Origin: a virus
Virus genome (UHGV): UHGV-0097092
Reading direction: 5' to 3' (one strand)
DNA: 44,628 nt
Of this stretch, positions 13,382-43,656 are shown piece after piece. Position numbers and translations under genes: made by a program. How positions within the stretch are numbered: the first letter of the stretch is position 1; each line of letters begins with the position of its first letter. The notes beneath the pieces were generated by a model. That model saw nothing but the letters and a program-made list of their open reading frames with translations, did not search any database and was not told where the DNA came from.

Positions 13382-13597
13382 GTAAACAAAATGAAGTTTT
13401 ATGTTATAAAAACAATTAACTACATCAACATGATTTAGGCCAAATTTCGGTCAAAAAATAAAATCCACAAAAAGTGGTTGACACTATTTTGGAAATCACA
13501 AACTGCACATAATCCATCGCGCTAACGGCTCCCGTTGAAGGTTCTTTTGACGATTAACTTTCAGCCGAAGCGCGGTAGGGAGTCATAACGCCAAAGC

Positions 13598-21193: not shown

Positions 21194-21814
21194 ATGGTTG
21201 CCCCCTGGCTGGAATACGGTGTCGATGCCGCTATCGTCGATCCACAGCACTTATCGACCAGTGACGAGCGGATGCAATCAGGTGCCGTTCTGACGCGTAT
21301 TAGTGCGATCATCGATAGCGATGAAGTATACGCTTTTCTCCGTAAGAATTTGCAGCGCATCGTGTTTCTGGCCGGGTTCCCACCGTGTACTGACCTGGCT
21401 GTTTCCGGCGCGCGCTGGTTTTCGGACAAGGCTAATAAAGATCCGGTTTTCCAGTTCAAAGCAATGCAGGTTGTCTGGCAGTGTTATGACATTGCAAAGA
21501 TGATCGGTTGTCCGTACATGATTGAAAATCCGGTCAGCAAAATATCGACATTCTGGCGTAAGCCAGATCACATCTTTCACCCTTACTTCTTCACTGCATA
21601 TTGTCAGGAAGATAACTACACCAAAAAAACATGCCTCTGGAGCGGCCAGGGCTTTGTCATGCCTGATGCCCTAATGGACGAATCATTAGGCAAGCCAGAT
21701 AACAGAATCCATGCCGCGCCACCAGGGCCTGACAGGGCTAATTTCCGAAGTGCTACTCCACATGGATTCGCAAAGGCAGTTTTCGAAGCGAATAAGGGGG
21801 TGCTCTATGAGTAA
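21194..21814 (+). CDS. short C5-cytosine methyltransferase-like protein lacking an obvious target-recognition domain
   Basis: about 206 aa with motif I-like LCDFTGAM, motif IV-like GFPPCTDLAVSGA, motif VI-like MIENPV; start uncertain (ATG 21194 or upstream GTG/TTG). Confidence 0.45.
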   Translation: MVAPWLEYGVDAAIVDPQHLSTSDERMQSGAVLTRISAIIDSDEVYAFLRKNLQRIVFLAGFPPCTDLAVSGARWFSDKANKDPVFQFKAMQVVWQCYDIAKMIGCPYMIENPVSKISTFWRKPDHIFHPYFFTAYCQEDNYTKKTCLWSGQGFVMPDALMDESLGKPDNRIHAAPPGPDRANFRSATPHGFAKAVFEANKGVLYE

Positions 21815-22712
21815 ATCTATAGCAAGCATAGCCATAGAAAAACAGGATACGATGGCTGAAATTAGCTATATGCGCACCATTCGGACTCCGGATGAATATG
21901 AGCGTCCGATATTCAAATGGGTAGGTGGTAAATTCTCAGAATTGCCTACAGTGCTTGAGCATCTACCACACGGTAAGCGGTTAATAGAACCATTCGTTGG
22001 TGGCGGTTCCGTATTTACGAATGCAGGATTTCGCCACAACCTGCTTAATGATATTAACGGTGACCTGATTAACTTCTATCAGACATTGCAGCGAGAAGGA
22101 CATTCGCTCGTCACGCTGTCATATAGTTTTTTCAAAAATTACAACAACGCTGACGCTTACCTCGAAGTGCGTGAGGCATTTAACAGAGGAAAATATGACC
22201 AGCTACATCATGCTGCCGCATTTTTGTACCTTAATCGTCACTGTTTTAATGGCGTAACGCGGTACAACCAAAATGGCGAGTTCAACGTGGGGTATGGCAA
22301 ATACAAAGCGCCCTACTTCCCACATGCAGAGATGGAGGCATTTTTGGCTGATGACGTACTCAAAAACACTTCCTTTGTATCAGGAGACTTTGCTAGCGTC
22401 ATCGAGGCGGCTGGTGAAGACGATGTGATTTTTTGTGATCCGCCGTATGAACCGCTTCCGGATACAGAGGGATTTACCAGCTATTCAGGAAATAGCTTCC
22501 GTTTCGATGAACAAAAACGGCTTGTATCACTGTTGGTGGATGCCCACCAGCGCGGCGCTAAGGTAGTGATAACAAATAGTGGTGCTCCAAACATCCGTGA
22601 GCTATATGAAGGAAACGGGTTTAAAGTACATCATATGGCAGCCAGACGGTCGGTTTCCTGCAAGGCGTCAACACGTGTAGTTGCTAACGATATAATTGCA
22701 ATAATGAAGTAA
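21807..22712 (+). CDS. dam: Dam-family DNA N6-adenine methyltransferase
   Basis: FKWVGGK, EPFVGGGSVF, FLYLNRHCFNG and DPPY motifs; 8-bp overlap with upstream gene. Confidence 0.8.
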   Translation: MSKSIASIAIEKQDTMAEISYMRTIRTPDEYERPIFKWVGGKFSELPTVLEHLPHGKRLIEPFVGGGSVFTNAGFRHNLLNDINGDLINFYQTLQREGHSLVTLSYSFFKNYNNADAYLEVREAFNRGKYDQLHHAAAFLYLNRHCFNGVTRYNQNGEFNVGYGKYKAPYFPHAEMEAFLADDVLKNTSFVSGDFASVIEAAGEDDVIFCDPPYEPLPDTEGFTSYSGNSFRFDEQKRLVSLLVDAHQRGAKVVITNSGAPNIRELYEGNGFKVHHMAARRSVSCKASTRVVANDIIAIMK

Positions 22713-22760: not shown

Positions 22761-24422
22761 TTAACCTAACTTCGCCCAGGTATCACGCAGCCCAACGGTG
22801 CGGTTAAATACCGGTTTTTCCGCCGTAGAATGGCGGCTGTCGAGGCAGAAATAACCTTCACGCTCAAACTGGAATGCTTTACCCGCTACCGCTTCTTTCA
22901 GCGACGGTTCAGCAAAGCCTTGTTTGATCACCAGCGATTCCGGGTTAATCACCGACAGGAAATCATCCGCAGCACCAGGGTTCGGCACGCTGAACAGACG
23001 GTCGTACAGACGGATTTCAACCGGCAGCGCATGTGCCGCGCTCACCCAGTGAATAACACCTTTGACTTTACGACCATCTGCCGGATCTTTGCTTAAGGTG
23101 TCGGCGTCATAAGTACAGAAGATGGTGGTGATATTGCCTTCGGCATCTTTCTCCACGCGTTCAGCCTTAATGACGTAAGCATTACGCAGACGCACTTCTT
23201 TACCCAGCACCAGACGTTTGTACTGCTTGTTAGCTTCTTCTCGGAAATCGGCGCGGTCGATCCAAATCTCACCGCTAAACGGCACCTGACGGCTACCCAT
23301 TTCCGGTTTGTTTGGATGGTTCGGCATGGTGACCATTTCGCCTTCGCCCTGGTAGTTTTCGATAACCAGTTTCACCGGATCGATAACCGCCATTGCGCGC
23401 GGCGCATTTTCGTTGAGATCTTCACGGATGCAGGATTCCAGCGACGCCATCTCAATGGTGTTGTCCTGCTTGGTCACGCCGATGCGTTTGCAGAACTCAC
23501 GAATAGAAGCCGCAGTGTAACCACGACGACGCAGACCGGAAATGGTCGGCATACGCGGGTCATCCCAGCCTTCAACGTGCTTGTCGGTCACCAGCAGGTT
23601 CAGCTTACGCTTGGACATCACAGTGTATTCCAGATTCAGGCGCGAGAATTCGTACTGGCGCGGGTGAACAGGAATGGTGATGTTGTCCAGCACCCAGTCG
23701 TACAGGCGACGGTTGTCCTGGAACTCAAGCGTACACAGAGAGTGCGTAATACCTTCCAGCGCATCGCTGATGCAGTGGGTGAAGTCGTACATCGGGTAGA
23801 TGCACCACTTGTTGCCAGTCTGGTGGTGTTCAGCAAATTTAATACGGTACAGCACCGGATCGCGCATCACGATAAACGGTGAAGCCATGTCGATTTTCGC
23901 ACGCAGGCAGGCTTTACCTTCTTCAAAACCACCGGCACGCATTTTTTCGAACAGCGCCAGGTTCTCTTCAACGCTGCGGTCGCGGTACGGGCTGTTTTTA
24001 CCCGGTTGCGTCAGGGTGCCGCGGTATTCGCGGATCTGTTCCGGCGTCAGTTCATCAACGTACGCCAGGCCTTTATTGATCAGTTCGATCGCATAGGCGT
24101 GGAGCTGATCAAAATAATCGGAGGAGTAACGGACGTTACCAGACCAGTGAAAACCTAACCACTCTACGTCGTTTTTGATCGACTCAACATACTCGATATC
24201 TTCTTTTACCGGGTTAGTGTCGTCGAAACGCAGGTTGCACTGGCCTTTATAGTCCTGGGCGATCCCGAAGTTCAGGCAGATAGATTTCGCATGGCCAATA
24301 TGCAGATAGCCATTTGGTTCCGGCGGGAAACGGGTATGTACTGTGGTGTGCTTACCACTGGCCAGATCTTCATCGATGATCTGACGAATGAAGTTAGTCG
24401 GGCGGGCTTCTGCCTCACTCAT
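22761..24422 (-). CDS. glnS: glutaminyl-tRNA synthetase, near-identical to E. coli GlnRS as recalled
   Basis: 553 aa; N-terminus [52 protein letters not shown] and VMSKR class I motifs. Confidence 0.95.
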
Positions 24423-24690: not shown

Positions 24691-24978
24691 TTATTTTGCT
24701 TCCTCAGACTCCGCTAACATGAGGATAGCATGGCGGATCATATTCAATTTGCTGCGATTATGCTTTTTGCTTAACGCATCAAGTACCTGGTACTCGTATT
24801 CATTGAAGCCAACACGAATGGATTTAAAATCACGTGGGGCGTCCTTATCGAGCACTTTGTTGTCTTCTGGTTGCTCACCCGGCACCAAATCAGCTTTGCT
24901 GGCAAAAGCCTCAATTCGGCGTTCAAGATCGAGGTCTTTTACTTCGGGGGCTTTTACCGATTTACGAGGCTTAATCAC
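24691..24978 (-). CDS. ParG-like ribbon-helix-helix centromere-binding protein
   Basis: 95 aa; C-terminal RHH-like KSIRVGFNEYEYQVLDALSKKHNRSKLNMIRHAILML; downstream of and overlapping the ParA-like gene. Confidence 0.5.
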   Translation of the reverse strand: MIKPRKSVKAPEVKDLDLERRIEAFASKADLVPGEQPEDNKVLDKDAPRDFKSIRVGFNEYEYQVLDALSKKHNRSKLNMIRHAILMLAESEEAK

Positions 24979-25612
24979 TTAATAACTCCTTAACCAACAT
25001 CTGGATTTCACCTTTAGCTTTCCCGTTGTCCATCTCAACAACGCCCTTCCCTTCAGCCATACAATCGCGGTAAACCTTGCGATCGCGAATGATGGTTTTC
25101 AGCAACTTCAGTTGCGGATATTCAGCCAGGTACTCTTTGGCCTCATTGGCTTCATTCACAACCGGATTGGATGGGGCCATTGTTAAGACTGCGCACGCCT
25201 TAATGCTAGGATTAGGCATCAGATCCAAAGCCTCTTCAAAGACTTCAACAAAATGCGCCAGAGTGTCTAAATCTGGCTGAGATGGCCTGAATGGAACAAG
25301 CAAAACATCCGCCGCAGTAATACCGGTGCGCATTTCTTTGCTATCACGACCAGCGGTATCAACAACCACAAATTCATAACGCTTGTCCAGATCAAGAAGT
25401 GTTTCACGAATATTCCCAAACTTCTGGACGCAATGAATTACTGGAGAAACCTCTGCCGCATTACGGTCCGATGCCCAACGGGCAGATGTTCCTTGCTTAT
25501 CTGCATCAAGTAGAACTACGTCCTTATTTGCGCGGGCAAGCTCCGCACAAATATTTACGCTGGTGGTTGATTTGCCACAGCCACCTTTTTGGCTGGCTAC
25601 CAATATAATCAT
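24971..25612 (-). CDS. parA: small ParA/ParF-type Walker ATPase (type Ib partition)
   Basis: start MIILVASQKGGCGKSTT (deviant Walker A); about 213 aa; GAGG upstream. Confidence 0.8.
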   Translation of the reverse strand: MIILVASQKGGCGKSTTSVNICAELARANKDVVLLDADKQGTSARWASDRNAAEVSPVIHCVQKFGNIRETLLDLDKRYEFVVVDTAGRDSKEMRTGITAADVLLVPFRPSQPDLDTLAHFVEVFEEALDLMPNPSIKACAVLTMAPSNPVVNEANEAKEYLAEYPQLKLLKTIIRDRKVYRDCMAEGKGVVEMDNGKAKGEIQMLVKELLSD

Positions 25613-26251: not shown

Positions 26252-27191
26252 TTAACCGATTGCTTTCAGGCCATGAACAAGAGCAAGTTGCGGGTCATCC
26301 GCCACGAAGAAACGGTCATCACGAATATTAACTTGCTCGCGAATTGCATCTGCCACCAGCGGTGCGCCACCACCGATCACCATGACATGCGTATATCCTT
26401 TAAAGAACGCGGGTACGCAGACGGTCAATGCTTGCGGCAATGGCCTTTTTCACATCACCAACCGCTGATGGGTCATTGATATTGTCGTTCAGATAATCTT
26501 CATCGTGGCGGTTAATAATGAGCTGATCGACATTGTAATTTGACGTTTCGGTATTGGCTCTGGCAAGTGCTTGCCTTACTTCCCTGGTAACCAGAGAGAC
26601 GCCAAGATTCGAATCGCCAAAAACACGGGAAACTGCCGTCATTTGCCCGGCGACCATTGAAACATCAAGGGTAGTTCCACCCAAATCGACGATAAGAACA
26701 GAATGGGCAGGGTTCAGATTGTCGCACAGGCCAATTCCTGCCGGAATAGACTCCGGGCGTACCGTAACTTTCTTAATCGTGAACACATTGCCTTTATTCA
26801 GCGTGACGGGGCGCATAAGGCTGGCTTTCTTGCGCTCGATGTTATCGAGATTGTATTGCGCGTCGTCGTCGTAAAACTCCGCCAGAGGCAGCGTGACCAC
26901 AATTTCTACTTCCTGCGGCTCAATGCCACTTGTCAGCAGGGCATGGTGAACAGCCAGGACGTTAAGCGGGCTGTATTGCCATTCCACGTTATTCGTCGGC
27001 AGAACATCTGGCGAGATCAAATCATACGAATACTTTTCGTCGTCAATGACATAGTTAAACGGCTTGCCCGCACCAAATGTTGCTGACCATCCGCGCTTAA
27101 AGCTGTTAGGGCTGATGTGAGTGCGAGTTTCCCCGTCGTGCTCCCACAGCATTTTGATATTGGTTGAACCATCATCGATAAAAATGCGCAT
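26252..27191 (-). pseudogene. parM: ParM/StbA-like actin-type partition ATPase, interrupted by a frameshift near 26400-26420
   Basis: N-terminal 263 aa (MRIFIDDGSTNIK...DRLRTRVL) stops at 26400; the conserved C-terminus (GYTHVMVIGGGAPLVADAIREQ...) continues in another frame (26252..26440). Confidence 0.6.
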
Positions 27192-27216
27192 CTTCTTGCT
27201 CCACTTCTGAGACACA

Positions 27217-30150: not shown

Positions 30151-30257
30151 CGTGTTAACAGATTTTATTTTACTAATGCTATTGACTAAATCACAAAGTT
30201 GGTATTGTTAGCGCGTCAAAAGAACCTTCACGCCGCGCCCGAATTTAGGGCTTAACC

Positions 30258-36643: not shown

Positions 36644-37351
36644 GTGAGTATTTTCAGCAGCGTTGGTAGAACGTTGACCACCGCATTGTCATTTAGCACG
36701 AAATCATTCACCAGCAACCTCATTAGCGACATTCTTGATAAAGCCATATCAGGCGGCGGGGTAAGCGGGAATTACAGTAGCGATATTGCCTACGGGAAAA
36801 ATATTGTTGCTGCCGCTATGCGTATCCGTTACGCCCAGGGGTGGCAGTGGACCGTTGAAGTGGATGGCCTGAACGGCTTCGATATGTTCGTGAAGGATAT
36901 CACCTACAGCAGTGGAAACATTGAGACAGAAAGCAAGGTGATCGGCAGCGTAGAATTCAGCAAGCCAACCTATGTTAGCGCCGGACCGGTCACTATGACC
37001 GTGAGGGATACCGAAGATGGCAAGATCATGGACTGGTTCAAAGAGCGTCGTTCTCGTGTAACAAATCCTGATGGAACAATAAACCTTCCTCCTGAATATC
37101 TGATGAAAATCCGTGTCTACCGGGTGACTCAGGACGGCGGAAAAGAACTGGAAGAAGAAATGCGCGTATTTCCTACGCAACTTGGGGAAATCACACGCTC
37201 ACGTGATCAGGTGTCAGAGTTCTTGTCATACCCAATCACTTTCCAGAAATACACATCCGCAGGCTCAGGTGTTTCAGCTTTGGTCAACGGTGCCGCTGGC
37301 ATGGCTACAAGTGCGTTAAAGGGGGCTGTGAGTGGAGTGATCAAATTCTGA
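36644..37351 (+). CDS. hypothetical structural protein (GTG start)
   Basis: GGAGG 7 nt upstream of GTG; 235 aa. Confidence 0.4.
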   Translation: MSIFSSVGRTLTTALSFSTKSFTSNLISDILDKAISGGGVSGNYSSDIAYGKNIVAAAMRIRYAQGWQWTVEVDGLNGFDMFVKDITYSSGNIETESKVIGSVEFSKPTYVSAGPVTMTVRDTEDGKIMDWFKERRSRVTNPDGTINLPPEYLMKIRVYRVTQDGGKELEEEMRVFPTQLGEITRSRDQVSEFLSYPITFQKYTSAGSGVSALVNGAAGMATSALKGAVSGVIKF

Positions 37352-37440
37352 ATAGCTTTAATTATGTGTGCTGGAGGGTTGCTCATTTCCCGTCAGCACC
37401 CACGCCCTCAACGATAGCGGGTAGGGAAGGTAGCGCAATT

Positions 37441-37736
37441 TTGAGGGCATTTTTTACATCATTAATCCATCTGTAATGAAGGCATTCTTTACACATTTCA
37501 ATAATATCAATCAGTTAACACAGTGAATGATAATAAAAAGCGCAATAAGAATGCACGATACGCACGATATTGGTTGAGGGCGATTTTTACATAATCCTTA
37601 TATATCAATTCGTTATATAAAAACACAACTTGCTAATAACAAGATACATGCAATTAAGATGTAAAAATTGCCCTCAATTGCCGATCGTTAAGGGCAAATT
37701 CTACACCTTGAGAGGGGTGTAAAAATTGCCCTTAAG
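37441..37736. repeat. downstream iteron cluster (inc-like), mixed orientation
   Basis: TTGAGGGCATTTTTTACATC (37441), TTGAGGGCGATTTTTACAT (37574), inverted copies GATGTAAAAATTGCCCTCAA (37668) and GGTGTAAAAATTGCCCTTAAG (37716). Confidence 0.55.
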
Positions 37737-38487
37737 ACTGCTGATAGGTAAATTTTATCCTGGTAACTTTGCCGCCTTCCGTCACCTCTGAGAAGACTAT
37801 TTTCATTTTTGTATTTTTTTCAATCTCTGCTACAGCCTTCGTTAAAAAACTTCTCTTAAATTCGGCATACCGCTGATAGCTTTTTGGTAACCCATAACGC
37901 TCCCGCATCCATTCGACGCCAAGTATGGCAAAGCCGCTTCCATCATCCTTCCTGTACTGGCATAAGGACTCATAAAGCCGCATAGAATAAGGATTTGTAA
38001 GGCGAGATACTTCGGTAAAATTCAGCCTTGTGAATCTCTTATCAAGCAGAGTAAAAAACGGCATGAGATATGGATTAAGATGAATAATGTAAGTCCCGCG
38101 CCGTGGTGAATAGGCATCCTTAATCATCCAAGGATAAGACTCATAACTGTCTTCTGATTCGGTCGATTCATCAGGGTTATATATCGTAACTTTCTTCTCG
38201 CTAAGACCTGAAATGGCCTTACGAATATCCTTGCTGGCTTCAGCAGAGGGCAAATTATACATCTCTGCATATTCGTTGACCGTCAACTCACAGGCACCTG
38301 AACCAAGAACGCCATCCTTAGAAGCATAGCGAAGTCTTCCCACCACAATAAACAACAGTCGCTTTTGGTCGCGAGTCAGGTGATAAGCAGCCTCCGTGAT
38401 CTCATTGGCTTGTGCCAAACTACGACTAATAGGTGTCGCTGACTCAATCAGGCTGACGGCTTTTGCTGTTAATTCCGCTCTGTTCAT
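37732..38487 (-). CDS. repA: iteron-binding replication initiator (Rep_3 family, RepE/RepA-like)
   Basis: 251 aa from ATG 38487; NPYSMRLYESLCQYRKDDGSG and SAEASKDIR segments closely resemble recalled F RepE; flanked by iterons. Confidence 0.8.
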   Translation of the reverse strand: MNRAELTAKAVSLIESATPISRSLAQANEITEAAYHLTRDQKRLLFIVVGRLRYASKDGVLGSGACELTVNEYAEMYNLPSAEASKDIRKAISGLSEKKVTIYNPDESTESEDSYESYPWMIKDAYSPRRGTYIIHLNPYLMPFFTLLDKRFTRLNFTEVSRLTNPYSMRLYESLCQYRKDDGSGFAILGVEWMRERYGLPKSYQRYAEFKRSFLTKAVAEIEKNTKMKIVFSEVTEGGKVTRIKFTYQQS

Positions 38488-38512
38488 AACCCTGTGTGAT
38501 CCTTCAAATGGT

Positions 38513-38629
38513 GAGGGCAATTTTTACATCACTTTGAGGGCAATTACTACACCTTTTGAGGGCAAATCTTACACCTTCTGAGGGCAAATCTTACACCGAT
38601 CGTATCTAATTGAGGGCAAATCTTACACC
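38513..38629. repeat. five direct 19-20 bp iterons (TGAGGGCAAATCTTACACC-type) at about 22-bp periodicity upstream of repA
   Basis: copies at 38513, 38535, 38557, 38580 and 38610. Confidence 0.7.
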
Positions 38630-38674
38630 AGACTCCTCTACAGCCCGCGCCACTGCTGGCTCCAGCGACGCCTA

Positions 38675-38733
38675 AAAAGGATCTAAAAAGGATTAAAAAT
38701 GGAAAAAGGTTTATAAAAATACTCTGTGGATAT
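38675..38733. promoter_or_regulatory. AT-rich repeat region plus DnaA-box-like TGTGGATAT; candidate unwinding element and DnaA site of the origin
   Basis: AAAAAGGAT repeats with GATC sites; TGTGGATAT at 38725-38733 is an 8/9 match to the DnaA box. Confidence 0.4.
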
Positions 38734-38875
38734 GTGAGTAGCGTCACTTAAGGTGTAAAAATCACCCTCAATAATCGCTTCTCGACCGGCAAAGATCTTC
38801 ATTCAATCCCCATCGCAAATCACACACTCCCTATCCTCTGGAAAATGAACAGATACCTGCTTTTCGGAGGAATAA

Positions 38876-39697
38876 TTGAACATTCCAAAATTTCCATTGC
38901 CTTCCCGTCCTGAGACAGAAATTCAGTTCCACGCCCCTACCGTGAAGGATGCGCTGAAATATTCTGACCTGAACCCGGCAGAAGATGAGGCAACTACTAC
39001 AGAGTACCTTAACTCTATGCAGGATGGTGAAATTAACGACAGTGCTAACTGGACAGTTCAGGATCGCAGAACTGCTCTTTGGTGGATATTTGTTAATTCG
39101 CGCCCCGATGCAGTAATGACCTACTCCTATGAGTGCAGTCACTGCGGTAATACGCATCATGCAGATATTAACCTGAGCGACCTAGCCCAAACAGTAGAAA
39201 TACTCACTGTACCTCCTTACGTGAAAACCAACGTACCAGTAAATGGAGTACCAACTGACTGGATACTTAAACCGTTAACCGGAAAAGGCGCGGAACTCCT
39301 TGAACGAATGCGAGCGTCGCTTCCTGATATGAAAAGCCCCGAATACAGTGCTGGCGTGGCACGGATGCGAATTGCTGAACTCGCTTTATGCACGGCGCTT
39401 GAAGACGATCCGGAGGACTTCACGCAGGCCGCTAACCGACGCTTTGACATCATTGAAAGCATGGCGCTTGAAACCGAATTTACTCCGCTTGTGGCTCGCA
39501 TACAACTTATGCAAAAAGACCTACGCCACGGCCTGAAAATGTCTATTGAGAGAGGCTCAAGCCGACTGATCCTGCCTCCGCAACATTGCAAAAACGCTAA
39601 GGAGGGTGCAGATGTGACAACCACACTGTACGTCCCCTTTCTCAATAGAGAGTTTATCCCATCAATTAGATCTGAATGGATGGCTAACCATTATTAA
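38876..39697 (+). CDS. hypothetical protein with zinc-ribbon-like motif (TTG start)
   Basis: GGAGG 7 nt upstream of TTG; YECSHCGNTHH. Confidence 0.45.
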   Translation: MNIPKFPLPSRPETEIQFHAPTVKDALKYSDLNPAEDEATTTEYLNSMQDGEINDSANWTVQDRRTALWWIFVNSRPDAVMTYSYECSHCGNTHHADINLSDLAQTVEILTVPPYVKTNVPVNGVPTDWILKPLTGKGAELLERMRASLPDMKSPEYSAGVARMRIAELALCTALEDDPEDFTQAANRRFDIIESMALETEFTPLVARIQLMQKDLRHGLKMSIERGSSRLILPPQHCKNAKEGADVTTTLYVPFLNREFIPSIRSEWMANHY

Positions 39698-39711: not shown

Positions 39712-42700
39712 ATGGATATCAGCCCGTTAGCGACGTTGAACAATTACCGCAATGGCGAGCACTCCATATGTCAAAAGCCCTGGAAGAAAAATACAAAGCT
39801 CAAGCCGGGAAACGTTGATCGCGCTGGCAAAAGAGAGGTTATTTTGAAAGAGAATAAAGACCGTATCGCAATAATTGACGCTATACAGGGGGCGAGCACA
39901 AACGAACTTAAGGCTCTTGCTGAGATCAAAAACGCCATTCTCTCTGATAGAGGGTCTATAACTCAACTTGGTGAAAATCAAGGTAAAGTAAGTCAAAGAC
40001 TATCCCGTAGACGCATAGCAAGCGAACCCTATGTCTCTGGTGATGCCAAGAATACCCAAGCTAACCCATATATAAAACGCCTTCCGATGAAAAAAGGGAG
40101 GACGCAGGTCAACAACGGAGAAGAACGTCTCATTGTTGCAACCAACACATCAGAGCGCGTTCATTTTGCGTCATCACGCCAGTCCGCCCAAAAGTTGAAA
40201 GGTTCTGTGCCAGTAGCCGCTAATTCTGCTCCTCTTGAACCACAATCCCCCCAAAGCCAAAAAGGACCGCTTCGGGATAGTAATGGACGCTTTGTATCCC
40301 AGAAAAACAACGAAGATATAGCCAGAAAAAAAGAATGGCAGAACGCACGTAAGGCCGACGCCAAACTACAAGAAGGCTTCCTCCGGAAATTAGGCTCCAT
40401 TATAGGGGTAGATGGCAATCAGTCTTCCAGTGAAGAGTCTTTAACAGATGCCGCAGGTGTCGGCGCTGGTGGTCCGTTGTGGATGGCTGCTCGCGGCATG
40501 TACGACATTACTAAAGAGATCACAGGTAAAGCAGAATCTCTTAAAGAATGGGTAGAAAAGGGGAAAGGTGAGGCTTTATCTTCGAAAGCGACATCACCAG
40601 CTATCACTTATCCGGCGGTGGTGAATACTCAAAAAGCAACCTCTGCAACAGCATTTAATAATGCTGTTGAGACAAAATCAGCACAAGCAGTAGAAGAGCA
40701 AACAAAAATTCTTCAGACCAATGACAACAAAATAATTGATGGTCTGGAAAATGTCTCCGACGAAGTAGTTAAGCTACGCAAATCAGTATCTTCTGGGAAT
40801 AAGTTCGGCTTAAGTGATCTCTGGAGAAATCGAGCAAGCAGAAGAAATAAAATCAATATTGGCGAACAGGCTGGTAAAAATAAACGGAACAAACCGAAAA
40901 GGAAAGGTCGCAATCTGGGGAAAAAAGCCCTTTCTGTTGGTGAAAAAGCCGCTGCCGGAACCGCTGCTGCTGGAGCTGGTGCCGGAGCTGCAAAGACTGT
41001 TAAAACAAAGGTTAGTAAAGCCAAAGACATCAGCACCACAAGCGACGCATCTAAGGGTATTGCTAAAGAAACAAAAAACACAGCAAAGGCAGTTAAGCCA
41101 GCAGGTGTTGTTGCCGAAGAGGCCACAATTAAAACAGGTGAAACTGTTGCAAAGAAAAAAACCGAATCCGTAGCCCTCAAAAGTGCTGCAAAAATAGGTG
41201 TTAAATCAGCTGCTTCTACAGCTGCAAGAGCTATCCCGATCATCGGATCGCTGGCTATGGCGGGATATGACGCTATAGATGGTTACACTGATACAGATGC
41301 GCAAAAGGCAGCCTTTGGATTAAGTGACGATGATGCTGTATCCGAACAGCAAAAAACGGCTTACGCAACAGCTAATGTGCTCGATATGGGGGGCTTGGTG
41401 TCGGGCGCAACGAACTTGATAGGGAAAGGAATTTCTGCGCTAGGATTTGAAAGAGCAGGTGAAAAACTTCAGAATTTTGATACCGGAGATATTGCTCGTG
41501 GTGTTAACGGCGCGGTAGATATCACCAAATCTGTTTTTGGTAACCTTAAGGATACATTTTTATCCACTGACGAAAACACGAAACAAGTAAAAAAAGCTGT
41601 TGAAGACGGCACAAAAAAAACTGTCGATGCGATTCATTCTCTTGGTGAACAATTACAAGGTGGGCGTAATGGCGAGGATGGAGTTGGTGAGCACGGGTAT
41701 ACTTCTCCAACTGAATTTAGTGCACCTGCCAACAACACCATTGCAGCGGATCTGAATATTGGCGGCAGCAACGCTAAAAACCGCAATTACCGAAATAATA
41801 ATCTCGGCAATCTTGTTTTTGCCAACCAGGAAGGGGCGACGCTGGAATCGCCAAATGCAAAAGGTGAACAACGTTTTGCGCGATTTAACACACCTGAAGA
41901 AGGGATCAGGGCACTGGCAAACCAGGTTTCCAGCTATTACAACGGCACCAGTGCCGCAGCGGGATATCAGAAGTTACAGACGGTATCCAGCATCATTTCA
42001 AAATGGGCACCGCCAAATGAGAACAATACTAACCAATATATTGATAACGTCAGTAAATATCTTGGTGTATCGCCTAATGAAAAAATAGATGTCAGCAAAC
42101 CAGAAGTTATGACGCAATTAGTTCGTGCAATTGCGACGAAAGAAGGCGGAAATCCGGCAGTTAATAATGAGTTCATTAAGAACGCACTTGGAGCATTTAA
42201 CACAAACACTGGTCGATGGGAGGGACAATTCTCTGACGAAACATTGGCGCGGATTAATAAAATTCAGAAAGAAAATGGTGGTCAGCTAATTGCCCGCGAT
42301 TCGCAATATAGTGTTGGTCGCAAGGTAAAATATGCTAATGGAAAATCTCCAGCTCAACCAGTTTTGAATGCCGTTCCGACAGCAACACAACAGCCAATTG
42401 AGGTTGCACAACATGCCCAGGCAGTCAAAAAGCCACAAAAAACAGGTAACCAACCACAACCGATTAATCCAGAGAACGCTGATGTTAATACCGGCTCTCC
42501 ATCGAGTTTGCTTGAGCGGTTAATCACAATAAATGAAAGCGGAATCAGTGGTGCAAGTAATTTATTTGGCGGCGCGGCTACCAGCCTTGCTGGAACAAGT
42601 CTGGACCTGGTAAAGGATTTTGCGTTAGCTACTTCGTTTGGTTCTATATCTTCGCTTTCCGAAAAAGCGAAAGGAATGGATCAGGCTCTTACTGAAAAGA

Positions 42701-43656
42701 TATCCAGCTTAACCGGTAAATCTTTTGGATTTAAAAAAGCTTCTCAAGTGGCTGATATCGCAACAGCCATACAACAAAAACGCACTGTTAATCACGATAC
42801 AGAAATCATTGATCTACTTCCGGGAGATCAAGTATCCCCTTCTACTCCGAAAACTCCACAGCAGGAGCAGGCTCTGGCAATCAACCAGGCTATGGCGGGC
42901 TTTTCGTCTGCAGCGCCAGCACCGAAAACCCCACAGCAGGAGCAGGCTCTGGCAATCAACCAGGCTATGGCGGGAGCTGCGCCAGTAGTTACCTCTGGAA
43001 AACGAACTATCACGGCACCAAGTGATGTGCAGATTTATGACAACGGCTACAAGGTGGTTACAGGTGAGGATAAGAGCTTCTTTGGTTCGCTATTTGATTC
43101 CACGGTGTCAGGGCTTAAACAGACAGGAACCGCAGTAATTCCTGCCGTTGGCGATAACCTTTCACGACTTGTTGGGGGGATTGATAGTACAGGGATATTG
43201 AACGATCTTGTAATGCAGTCTACTGGGCAGAATAGTGCGATTGCGCGAGCTATTAGCCCATTAACAAGAAATGTTGGAGACTGGTTGAATGGGGGGATTC
43301 AACAAACCGCTAATAGCATTAGGGGAATAGCAACTGGTGCCAATAACGCCATATTTGGCTCTGCTTCAGCTGTGCAAGAACCTTTTCTTGCTATGCCGCC
43401 ACAACTCCCTACTGTAACCGATCTCGCACGAAGCGGAATAAGACAACCATTAACTACTGACACTATAAATAACGATCCTGCTATGTTGAAGGCGCTGGAT
43501 AACATCTGCTCTATCCTGAACGATCTGCTGAATGTGAACAAGAACAATACAAAAGGCGATCCGGATAATGTTGTCAAAACATCGCAGCCGCAGCCGCGAC
43601 CACGTGCGAGCACAACTATTAATGACCAGTCGCTGGATGCTCTGCTTGAGGATTAA
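39712..43656 (+). CDS. putative tape-measure / structural injection protein (P1 Sit-like); start uncertain (TTG 39844 has the better RBS)
   Basis: 1314 aa; Lys/Ala-rich low-complexity regions, internal tandem repeat, Gly-rich segments; sits next to baseplate genes. Confidence 0.45.
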   Translation: MDISPLATLNNYRNGEHSICQKPWKKNTKLKPGNVDRAGKREVILKENKDRIAIIDAIQGASTNELKALAEIKNAILSDRGSITQLGENQGKVSQRLSRRRIASEPYVSGDAKNTQANPYIKRLPMKKGRTQVNNGEERLIVATNTSERVHFASSRQSAQKLKGSVPVAANSAPLEPQSPQSQKGPLRDSNGRFVSQKNNEDIARKKEWQNARKADAKLQEGFLRKLGSIIGVDGNQSSSEESLTDAAGVGAGGPLWMAARGMYDITKEITGKAESLKEWVEKGKGEALSSKATSPAITYPAVVNTQKATSATAFNNAVETKSAQAVEEQTKILQTNDNKIIDGLENVSDEVVKLRKSVSSGNKFGLSDLWRNRASRRNKINIGEQAGKNKRNKPKRKGRNLGKKALSVGEKAAAGTAAAGAGAGAAKTVKTKVSKAKDISTTSDASKGIAKETKNTAKAVKPAGVVAEEATIKTGETVAKKKTESVALKSAAKIGVKSAASTAARAIPIIGSLAMAGYDAIDGYTDTDAQKAAFGLSDDDAVSEQQKTAYATANVLDMGGLVSGATNLIGKGISALGFERAGEKLQNFDTGDIARGVNGAVDITKSVFGNLKDTFLSTDENTKQVKKAVEDGTKKTVDAIHSLGEQLQGGRNGEDGVGEHGYTSPTEFSAPANNTIAADLNIGGSNAKNRNYRNNNLGNLVFANQEGATLESPNAKGEQRFARFNTPEEGIRALANQVSSYYNGTSAAAGYQKLQTVSSIISKWAPPNENNTNQYIDNVSKYLGVSPNEKIDVSKPEVMTQLVRAIATKEGGNPAVNNEFIKNALGAFNTNTGRWEGQFSDETLARINKIQKENGGQLIARDSQYSVGRKVKYANGKSPAQPVLNAVPTATQQPIEVAQHAQAVKKPQKTGNQPQPINPENADVNTGSPSSLLERLITINESGISGASNLFGGAATSLAGTSLDLVKDFALATSFGSISSLSEKAKGMDQALTEKISSLTGKSFGFKKASQVADIATAIQQKRTVNHDTEIIDLLPGDQVSPSTPKTPQQEQALAINQAMAGFSSAAPAPKTPQQEQALAINQAMAGAAPVVTSGKRTITAPSDVQIYDNGYKVVTGEDKSFFGSLFDSTVSGLKQTGTAVIPAVGDNLSRLVGGIDSTGILNDLVMQSTGQNSAIARAISPLTRNVGDWLNGGIQQTANSIRGIATGANNAIFGSASAVQEPFLAMPPQLPTVTDLARSGIRQPLTTDTINNDPAMLKALDNICSILNDLLNVNKNNTKGDPDNVVKTSQPQPRPRASTTINDQSLDALLED
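42847..42974. repeat. two tandem copies of a 75-bp unit (25 aa, PKTPQQEQALAINQAMAG...) inside the Sit-like gene
   Basis: near-identical units starting 42847 and 42922. Confidence 0.6.

Follow-up and report, generated by a model that had tools for sequence, protein, structure and literature searches.

Sequence-based assignment of a 1.5-kb stretch to the already catalogued plasmid-maintenance replicon of D6-type phage-plasmids

Phage P1 and the host of the D6-type replicon belong to the same phage family. The IncY replicon of P1 (oriR/incC-repA-incA) adjoins parAB after gene 23, whereas the D6-type replicon lies between tub and pmgB. The p0111 replicon of pO111_2 (NC_013370) is likewise an alternative replicon of P1-family phage-plasmids, those of the P1 subgroup; its rep gene adjoins parAB at the position of P1 repA, and tub and pmgB are neighbors there. 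The genome of phage D6 was reportedly described by Gilcrease and Casjens in 2018. The D6 record lists orf42 as a putative initiator of plasmid replication, with the note 'similar to P1 gene repA?', and a 'repB associated with iteron sequences' was reported for the D6-like plasmid pYU39_89 (PMC6799933). A comparable F fragment of 1,430 bp is a working mini-replicon (PMC13028717). No experiments on autonomous replication, on binding of Rep to the iterons, or on copy control were found for the D6-type replicon in the searchable literature. A 2025 preprint states that common replicon-typing schemes lack the D6 replicon, and D6-type elements can therefore go untyped.

The window, the whole stretch of 44,628 nucleotides of viral DNA analyzed here, showed 99.3 to 99.9% identity to phage D6 and to some 100 plasmids in the databases, in which the gene is already annotated, the closest being E. 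coli plasmids such as CP043746.1 (99.9%). The D6 counterpart (NC_050154, 45448-46974) is 99.3% identical in DNA and 100% identical in Rep amino acid sequence, and has the same flanking repeats and tub-pmgB slot. Judged by its sequence, the 1.5-kb stretch is thus the catalogued plasmid-maintenance replicon of a D6-type phage-plasmid, known as D6 orf42 and as MOB-suite rep_cluster_1704, to which the best plasmid matches were typed; nothing material distinguishes it from the replicon of D6 or of D6-like plasmids such as pYU39_89. An earlier reading made without database searches (the sequence-only reading) had proposed a complete iteron-type origin with an F RepE-like initiator, and was correct. 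Very probably, the stretch serves as the low-copy plasmid-prophage replicon of this P1-family element, in the form of a self-contained cassette of about 1.5 kb that would work like F oriS-repE-incC. The basis for this reading is sequence anatomy, homology, purifying selection on the iterons, and genomic position. New here are two orphan iterons of the P1 RepA type, paired at the left edge, a swap for a p0111-family replicon in one plasmid, and a likely pmgB late promoter.

Of 5,426 complete E. coli genomes, 88 carry the cassette, in every case on a plasmid, and the replicon occurs in Salmonella and Shigella too. The 111 PLSDB plasmids carrying it are about 90 kb, mostly non-mobilizable, and fall in rep_cluster_1704. 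A loose composite pattern gave 120 chance matches in IMG/VR, none with three or more RepE-type iterons, and a tighter pattern gave 14 loci, all of which have the window's 84-nt match span and are therefore presumably D6-type. NZ_CP027382.1 (36 kb, Rep 100% identical) was considered as a natural mini-replicon and rejected, being an incomplete linear contig that ends at assembly gaps. For typing and surveillance, the replicon marks D6-type phage-plasmids and is distinct from IncY and p0111.

The replicon sits between two tail genes within the structural-gene region, where the sequence-only reading had placed it, next to the following features.

36644-37351, + strand: tub (tail tube), left neighbor; 99.6% amino acid identity to D6 orf43, 'similar to P1 tub'
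38817-38837, + strand: candidate D6-type late promoter before pmgB, a motif match
38876-39697, + strand: pmgB homologue, right neighbor; 99.3% amino acid identity to D6 orf41

In P1, pmgB follows tub after 14 bp, and the cassette splits what is there a single late operon. The P1 late-promoter consensus AARTKACT-N5-TANAAT gave matches at chance level, none of them near pmgB. A D6-specific motif, AAATCACA-N7-TAnnnT, was derived instead; it matched three times against 0.32 expected, and seven of its eight matches in D6 lie upstream of genes that have late promoters in P1. From this motif, derived post hoc, we infer a promoter that likely restarts transcription at pmgB. A location among late structural genes might also suit a lytic (vegetative) phage origin. 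However, the RepL homologue of D6 (orf20, D6 21331-22293) adjoins icd/ant, as in P1, and Rep_3 iteron replicons that carry control iterons downstream are built to limit their copy number, which makes a lytic origin here highly unlikely. Lytic replication relies on repL, a separate gene that lies outside the window.

The gene at the center of the cassette encodes a predicted initiator and itself holds an iteron-like site.

37732-38487, - strand: rep, 251-aa RepE-family initiator with WH1 and WH2 (Pfam, 1REP, F RepE, D6 orf42)
38245-38261, + strand: iteron-like site within rep, codons MYNLPS, three mismatches

Rep contains the Pfam domains Rep3_N (2.9e-29) and Rep3_C (9e-16), each of which exceeds the gathering score (PF01051, PF21205). 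Its best match among solved structures is F RepE (1REP, E 1.4e-73, residues 22-249), and its alignment with solved RepE structures, at E about 1e-73, runs from one end to the other. It shares with F RepE the two-winged-helix family, a length of 251 aa, and 50% amino acid identity (E 2e-86; 52% at the nucleotide level), which bears out the proposal of a RepE-like initiator. Against the RepE equivalog NCBIfam NF010305, however, Rep scored 280.6 bits, below the cut-off of 342 (F RepE, 537.8), and because of this PGAP names it 'RepB family' and not RepE. BLASTP found no significant similarity of Rep to P1 RepA (E 0.057) or to the pO111_2 Rep (E 0.027), and tblastn of P1 RepA found no homologue in D6 or the window. 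A sigma-70 scan found no rep promoter. In the D6 genome, orf42 is the sole RepE/RepA-type gene, with repL located elsewhere. Of all 18-nt windows of the gene, the one at the intragenic site 38245-38261 shows the highest conservation among three Rep lineages (17/18, against a background of 48%); the site is absent in F and in the relative L014, whose Rep is 78% identical.

A search of the whole 44.6-kb window with the consensus TGAGGGCAATTTTTACA, allowing up to three mismatches, gave 13 matches against 0.21 expected, all within 37442-38770 (1.33 kb); none of 100 shuffles reached 13. Twelve copies of the 19-bp iteron gGTGTAAaAATTGCCCTCA flank rep, and the thirteenth match is the intragenic one. 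The region upstream of rep contains five copies in direct orientation, then a GC-rich spacer, an AT block, a DnaA box, and one inverted copy.

38512-38627, + strand: origin array, five direct 19-bp iterons starting at 38512, 38535, 38557, 38579, and 38611
38631-38664, no strand: G+C-rich spacer, 32% A+T, aligning with the equivalent F spacer
38665-38722, no strand: putative AT-rich unwinding region, 70.7% A+T, containing TTTTTAGATCC/CTTTTT repeats and a single GATC
38725-38733, - strand: DnaA box TGTGGATAT (ATATCCACA on the rep strand), 8 of 9 consensus positions
38754-38770, - strand: single inverted iteron beyond the DnaA box, two mismatches, 100% conserved

Downstream of rep, the features are as follows.

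37718-37734, - strand: downstream iteron 1, inverted, overlapping the rep stop codon; one mismatch, 95% conserved
37689-37705, + strand: downstream iteron 2; three mismatches, head-to-head with 37718-37734, 8 nt apart
37660-37676, - strand: downstream iteron 3, inverted; no mismatches, 95% conserved
37575-37591, + strand: downstream iteron 4; one mismatch, 94% conserved
37540-37556, - strand: candidate terminator-like hairpin and T-run downstream of rep, from a pattern scan only
37477-37493, + strand: downstream iteron 5, weak; three mismatches, 88% conserved against 57% in the flanking spacers
37442-37458, + strand: downstream iteron 6, distal, in the orientation of the origin iterons; one mismatch, 91% conserved

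An intact Rep ORF with WH1 and WH2, the iteron array, and the DnaA box with its AT-rich element are the components of an iteron-type theta replicon of the Rep_3 class. Several particulars of the sequence-only reading need adjustment. It had five direct iterons of 19 to 20 bp at a 22-bp period; five copies are indeed present, but their spacings are 23, 22, 22, and 32 bp, so that only four are periodic and the fifth lies one helical turn farther out. The AT-rich repeat block it described stands (70.7% A+T against 52.6% in the window, with AAAAAGGAT-type repeats). The cassette has six GATC sites, at background density, and because the block holds a single one (38680), the phrase 'with GATC sites' was overstated; there is no methylation cluster like that of P1, which has five GATC repeats where there is one here. 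The DnaA-box-like site was well placed, and its column block is invariant in five replicons, F included. Mixed orientation of the downstream iterons was rightly seen, but they number six and not four, and an incC/incA-like layout holds only loosely.

Conservation was measured by alignment column over five divergent cassettes. Iteron columns were 95.8% conserved, compared with 67.9% for other intergenic columns and 77.5% for rep third-codon positions; in the downstream region, the iterons were 91.7% and the spacers 56.9% conserved, and in the origin array, which ends 24 nt before the rep ATG, iterons were 99-100% conserved. By these sequence comparisons, the iterons are evidently under selection. 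The inverted iteron beyond the DnaA box has equivalents in the relative L016. These data also bear on whether the cassette might be an inert passenger or a decaying insertion in an element maintained by other means. It does interrupt an operon that is continuous in P1, and the slot can carry a different replicon (L013): in CP042620.1, a complete p0111-family replicon occupies the tub-pmgB slot instead of rep. Yet that one swapped plasmid shows a complete substitute and not a loss, Rep is the sole plasmid-type initiator in D6, the ORF is intact with first and second codon positions conserved at 98-99% against 77.5% at third positions, and the iterons are conserved above synonymous sites. We therefore regard a passenger as very improbable.

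This plasmid-maintenance replicon also resembles RepFIA of F. Both have, in this order, a DnaA box, an AT-rich DUE, a spacer rich in GC, iterons of 19 bp with a period of about 22 bp, rep, and downstream iterons, and F oriS is collinear with the origin described here through the DnaA box, TATTTTTATAA, TTTTTAGATC..CTTTTT, the GC spacer, and iterons in the same orientation to rep. The sequence-only reading had likened the iteron itself to that of RepFIA, which is right for one half and not for the other. The right-hand 13 nt, A.AAATTGCCCTCA, match F TGTGACAAATTGCCCTCA at 12 of 13 positions, and the iteron half TTGCCCTCA is common to F and the D6-type replicon; the other half is GGTGTAA here and TGTGACA in F, with a register shift of 1 nt. 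The F iteron TGTGACAAATTGCCCTCAG had no ungapped match with four or fewer mismatches in the window, nor was there one reciprocally. The two replicons also differ in the number of origin iterons (five here, four in F) and of good DnaA boxes (one here, two in F). The inverted iteron beyond the DnaA box has no equivalent in F, and the downstream iterons are of mixed orientation here, whereas all five of F incC are inverted. In the origin alignment, an F segment of about 45 nt with the dimer operator (TGTGACAA N9 TTGTCACA) had no counterpart, and unlike in F, the DNA from the iterons to the ATG contains neither an inverted-repeat operator nor a leader. Partition genes, also unlike in F, are unlinked to the replicon; a ParM-like and a ParA-like module lie 10-13 kb away.

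These comparisons weigh on the possibility that the cassette belongs to RepFIA (IncFIA) proper and is functionally interchangeable, and incompatible, with F. Rep matches the RepE family best, the right-hand 13 nt of the iteron agree at 12 positions, and the origins are collinear. On the other hand, identity is 50% in amino acids and 52% in nucleotides, Rep falls below the RepE cut-off (280.6 against 342 bits), the TGTGAC half of the iteron is replaced by GGTGTA with no match at up to four mismatches, and the operator is absent. In addition, the complete genome of strain WCHEC4533 contains both an IncFIA/FIB/FIC plasmid and one of the D6 type, a co-residence that is weaker evidence than it appears because the F-type plasmid is multi-replicon. 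On Rep score, iteron left half, operator, and co-residence, RepFIA membership fails, and we consider it improbable.

For the D6-type replicon, homology with F suggests that Rep would bind as a monomer to the five 19-bp iterons beside the start of rep, with DnaA of the host occupying the neighboring box. Melting of the 58-bp AT-rich block would then allow the host helicase and replisome to be loaded for theta replication. The six downstream iterons, and possibly the inverted copy beyond the DnaA box, may also bind Rep, and such control iterons would restrict copy number through titration or handcuffing (the pairing of origins) and determine incompatibility. Since the F dimer operator is missing, details of F control are not simply transferable. 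The array ends so close to the ATG, without an F-type operator, that the rep promoter must overlap the iterons, and autorepression therefore probably works through Rep bound to the iterons, as it does in P1, and not through a dimer operator. Placement in the RepE family offers a template for structure and mechanism and predicts that the replicon is compatible with P1 and possibly with F.

The cassette shares with P1 the iterons that run up to rep, the mixed-orientation downstream control iterons, and the outer DnaA box with an AT-rich region; in both, because the iterons reach the rep gene, the promoter must lie within them. The Rep sequences are unrelated and the iterons differ. The p0111 Rep has 294 aa, belongs to the P1 RepA/RepFIB lineage, is not significantly similar to the D6-type Rep, and goes with GTCAACAT-type iterons. 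Equating the D6-type replicon with the 'p0111' of PlasmidFinder was refuted by the unrelated pO111_2 Rep and its other position. A P1-type (IncY) or p0111-type replicon in a new position could be argued from two P1 RepA-type iterons at 37363-37404 and from the D6 note on repA. Nevertheless, Rep reaches only E 0.057 with P1 RepA and E 0.027 with pO111_2 Rep, none of the 12 repeats that look functional is a P1 iteron, and the five-GATC cluster is lacking. Strain APEC20/16 moreover carries an IncY P1 plasmid and a D6-type plasmid together. Such an origin is refuted at the sequence level and scarcely credible. The different Rep family and this co-residence agree with the earlier expectation of incompatibility behavior unlike that of P1. 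Among the matches listed (two lists of 60), at least one co-occurrence was seen, where about 0.7 was expected.

The two P1-type sites, which the earlier reader had overlooked, form an isolated inverted pair at the left edge of the cassette.

37363-37381, + strand: orphan P1 RepA-type iteron TATGTGTGCTGGAGGGTTG, PWM 23.9 bits
37386-37404, - strand: degenerate inverted partner (CGTGGGTGCTGACGGGAAA), PWM 14.7

Arrays of the P1 iteron GATGTGTGCTGGAGGGAAA on both sides of rep were not found; this pair stands by itself. The PWM was built from the 14 iterons annotated in P1, whose own scores range from 17.7 to 29.8, and the best of 30 shuffles scored 20.7. The 15-mer core has one exact match in the window. 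A role for the pair as tub terminator was rejected, as the RNA hairpin was not significant (z -0.71) and had no U-run. The inverted partner scores high (22.0) in the E. fergusonii variant L009, and the pair is deleted in three lineages. L014 likewise has P1-type inverted pairs immediately next to RepE-type control iterons, an arrangement present three times in units of 179 bp. Variation among copies of the P1-type sites resembles that among P1's own iterons (GGAGGG, GACGGG, GGCGGG). No RepA gene was found in the D6-type element or in the 12.8 kb covered of L014. That the pair at 37363-37404 is a working cross-talk element of this replicon family rather than debris seems rather doubtful. From their sequence, the orphan sites could be targets for the RepA of an IncY P1 plasmid that co-infects the cell, leading to a lower P1 copy number or to plasmid pairing. 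Alternatively, they could mark a recombination hot spot for replicon exchange among P1-family phage-plasmids, an idea that fits because the p0111-family replicon of CP042620.1 occupies the same slot. The orphan iterons, the one-slot swap, and the extra late promoter bear on replicon swapping and competition among phage-plasmids.

The cassette, a replicon of about 1.5 kb at 37352-38880, was 99.3% identical to positions 45448-46974 of phage D6 (NC_050154), a P1-family phage-plasmid, and reached 99.9% identity with plasmids including CP043746.1; the remainder of the window was D6-like at 85-97% identity. In D6 its initiator gene, rep, corresponds to orf42, which carries the annotation 'putative plasmid replication initiation'. 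The element is a known D6-type replicon, and its novelty is low. In PLSDB, 111 plasmids carried the cassette; these are about 90 kb, mostly non-mobilizable, typed as rep_cluster_1704, and hosted by E. coli, Salmonella, and Shigella. Among complete E. coli genomes it was present in 88 of 5,426, on plasmids every time. According to a 2025 preprint, common typing tools do not include the D6 replicon. Because lytic replication in D6 has its own RepL homologue, and orf42 is the only RepE/RepA-type gene of that genome, we take the cassette to be the replicon of the plasmid prophage.

Rep contained both Rep_3 initiator domains (Rep3_N, 2.9e-29; Rep3_C, 9e-16). A 17-nt iteron consensus, TGAGGGCAATTTTTACA, matched 13 times with at most three mismatches in the 44.6-kb window, and all matches fell within 37442-38770. 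By chance 0.21 would be expected, and none of 100 shuffles reached 13. The cassette and its surroundings are laid out as follows.

Features of the cassette and related sites in the window
36644-37351, + strand: tub, tail-tube gene, left neighbour of the cassette
37363-37381: P1 RepA-type iteron TATGTGTGCTGGAGGGTTG, directly after the tub stop codon, 23.9 bits
37386-37404: degenerate inverted partner of TATGTGTGCTGGAGGGTTG
37442 (+), 37477 (+, weak), 37575 (+), 37660 (-), 37689 (+), 37718 (-): six downstream iterons, 3' of rep
37732-38487, - strand: rep, 251 aa, sole gene of the cassette, on the strand opposite to tub and pmgB
38245-38262 (match 38245-38261): iteron-like site within rep, ATGTATAATTTGCCCTC
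Upstream of rep: five direct 19-bp origin iterons, GGTGTAAGATTTGCCCTCA, spaced 32, 22, 22, and 23 bp in rep-strand order
Between the origin iterons and the A+T block: G+C-rich spacer
38665-38722: A+T block, 58 bp, 70.7% A+T, with TTTTTAGATCC/CTTTTT repeats
38725-38733, rep-strand reading: DnaA box ATATCCACA, 8/9 match
38754-38770, rep-strand reading: single inverted iteron, outermost on the origin side
38817-38837 (before pmgB), 30188-30208 and 13493-13513 (the two before the major capsid gene and mat): copies of the motif AAATCACA-N7-TAnnnT
38876-39697, + strand: pmgB homologue, right neighbour of the cassette

The iteron scan and the rep-strand reading bore out the five direct iterons upstream of a RepE-like gene, and the DnaA-box-like site beside an AT-rich block, that a sequence-only reading had described. 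Its 22-bp periodicity held for the spacings of 22-23 bp, but the fifth origin copy is offset by an additional helical turn. The block is AT-rich as claimed, but the GATC sites ascribed to it came down to a single one, with background GATC density across the cassette. The downstream iterons are in mixed orientation, as had been noted, but number six rather than four. The rep ATG lies 24 nt past the last origin iteron.

The best solved-structure matches of Rep were F RepE entries, for example 1REP (E 1.4e-73, residues 22-249), and direct comparison with F RepE gave 50% identity (E 2e-86), in keeping with the proposed F RepE-like initiator. P1 RepA matched Rep only at E 0.057; an IncY P1-type plasmid also coexists with a D6-type plasmid in strain APEC20/16, so an IncY replicon was rejected, and the earlier view that the replicon is not canonical P1 holds. 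A typing of D6-type elements as 'p0111' was contradicted by the reference plasmid pO111_2, a P1-subgroup element, whose Rep matched at E 0.027 and has 294 aa, lies beside parAB, and leaves tub and pmgB adjacent.

The iterons of F (TGTGACAAATTGCCCTCA) were taken from its record, where oriS has four and incC five inverted ones. The right-hand A.AAATTGCCCTCA is common to both iterons at 12 of 13 positions, whereas F TGTGAC corresponds to GGTGTA in the cassette, shifted by one nucleotide; the suggested F-like iteron thus stands for its right-hand part only. When each consensus was searched against the other replicon, neither matched at four or fewer mismatches. F oriS was collinear with the cassette origin in an alignment with three other relatives, which shared an invariant TTATCCAC-type DnaA box, then TATTTTTATAA, TTTTTAGATC..CTTTTT, a GC spacer, and iterons of identical orientation. 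F alone has about 45 nt from the last iteron to the ATG, containing an inverted-repeat operator, TGTGACAA-N9-TTGTCACA, that is missing from the D6-type clade in this alignment. With the NCBI RepE equivalog model Rep scored 280.6 bits, below the cut-off of 342, versus 537.8 for F RepE. Strain WCHEC4533 harbors both a D6-type plasmid (NZ_CP028585.2) and an IncFIA/FIB/FIC plasmid (NZ_CP028587.1), an argument weakened because the latter has several replicons. On the score, the different iteron, the absent operator, and this co-residence, RepFIA membership was rejected; by analogy, the cassette would nevertheless work like F oriS-repE-incC. The observation of the sequence-only reading was confirmed, and its interpretation as a RepE-like replicon with an F-like iteron, not P1-like, in the structural region was supported.

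A database search recovered three intermediates: a metagenomic contig of 87 kb that carries DarB-like genes (L014; Rep 78% identical, different slot), a locus close to the P1 repA position and adjoining genes for capsid and sheath (L016; 71%), and a 73-kb Nissabacter plasmid (L018, CP028040.1; 57%). Each has five or six [AG]TGTA..A.TTGCCCTCA iterons at a 22-bp period reaching the start codon, so RepE-like replicons of this subtype are distributed among plasmids as well as several elements of the P1 family. In the Nissabacter plasmid (6001-8472) the RepE-like Rep adjoins a 294-aa P1-RepA/p0111-like Rep, with a separate iteron set for each. These families alternate in P1-family phage-plasmids, and the locus is a naturally occurring junction between replicons of both.

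Conservation was assessed in an alignment of the cassette and five divergent counterparts (overall identity 84-91%) carried by plasmids of E. coli, E. fergusonii, and E. marmotae. Column conservation was 95.8% in iterons, 67.9% in other intergenic sequence, and 77.5% at rep third-codon positions; downstream of rep it was 91.7% in iterons versus 56.9% in spacers, and the weak iteron at 37477 was 88% conserved. This conservation indicates that the repeats are functional sequence, not mere repeats. The iteron-like site within rep was the gene's most conserved 18-nt window over three lineages (17/18 versus a 48% background), its nucleotides being kept although the Reps are just 57-72% identical; no such site was found in F repE or in the metagenomic contig.

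By the model for F, as outlined in PMC13028717, Rep monomers bound to the five iterons would act with DnaA to open the AT-rich block, and the downstream iterons would restrain copy number, through titration or pairing, and determine incompatibility. Since there is no operator and the array directly adjoins the start codon, the rep promoter would have to overlap the iterons; a consensus scan gave no rep promoter. Autorepression is probably exerted by iteron-bound Rep, the logic of P1.

The placement within the structural gene region was upheld: every D6-type record examined has the cassette between tub and pmgB, with rep antisense. In P1 the tub-pmgB gap is 14 bp, inside the LPsit late operon. 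Just before pmgB, AAATCACACACTCCCTATCCT is conserved in every D6-type cassette variant; a p0111-family swap variant (CP042620.1) has two differences from it within the AAATCACA box. The derived motif, defined post hoc, had three matches in the window versus 0.32 expected, and in the whole D6 genome seven of eight matches lay on the correct strand and immediately preceded genes that have late promoters in P1 (genes behind matches: R, 23, mat, prt, lysozyme, and ddrB). P1 has no late promoter at the slot where the D6-type copy precedes pmgB. As a lead rather than a result, the motif is probably the D6-type late promoter, and the candidate before pmgB would restart late transcription past the cassette.

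The P1 RepA-type iteron was scored with a matrix from the 14 annotated P1 iterons (own scores 17.7-29.8); the best of 30 shuffles reached 20.7. The pair occurs in D6 and most D6-type plasmids and is deleted in three D6-type lineages, while in an E. fergusonii variant (L009, 2399-2459) both members are strong and the spacer differs. Because D6 encodes no RepA, these are orphan sites. The pair tolerates the co-resident IncY plasmid of APEC20/16, and an RNA hairpin formed from it was not significant. The sites may be either recombination debris or a cross-talk element, and they are the only part of the cassette that might repay experiment. In L014 (6835-7266), a second Rep lineage, the association of P1-type pairs with a RepE-type replicon recurs three times, as six strong sites in three inverted pairs, each abutted by a RepE-type iteron. 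In the D6-type plasmid pAPEC201603 (270-300) the P1-type iteron is preceded on its left by sequence unlike the usual tub end, and no CDS is annotated within 300 nt, which points to a rearranged left junction.

In CP042620.1 (3995-5837) the tub-pmgB slot holds a complete p0111-family replicon, with a 294-aa Rep 85% identical to that of pO111_2, its own GTCAACAT-type iterons, five GATC sites, and a DnaA box. It retains the left 326 bp of the cassette (37352-37677 of the window), with the P1-type pair and four RepE-type iterons whose Rep is gone. This arrangement was seen in just two PLSDB records.

Elsewhere in the window, a ParM-like partition gene (26400-27215, - strand; D6 orf58 homologue) has lost about 17 nt compared with D6 and is thereby truncated to 271 aa; the deletion may be either genuine or an error in sequencing. 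The ParA-like module next to it (24694-25612) is intact. The sit (tape-measure/transglycosylase) homologue (39712-43656, + strand) has 1,314 aa versus about 1,260 in D6, and its peptide PKTPQQEQALAINQAMAG is duplicated in tandem. A full-length glnS (glutaminyl-tRNA synthetase) homologue (22764-24422, - strand) adjoins the partition modules, as it does in D6.
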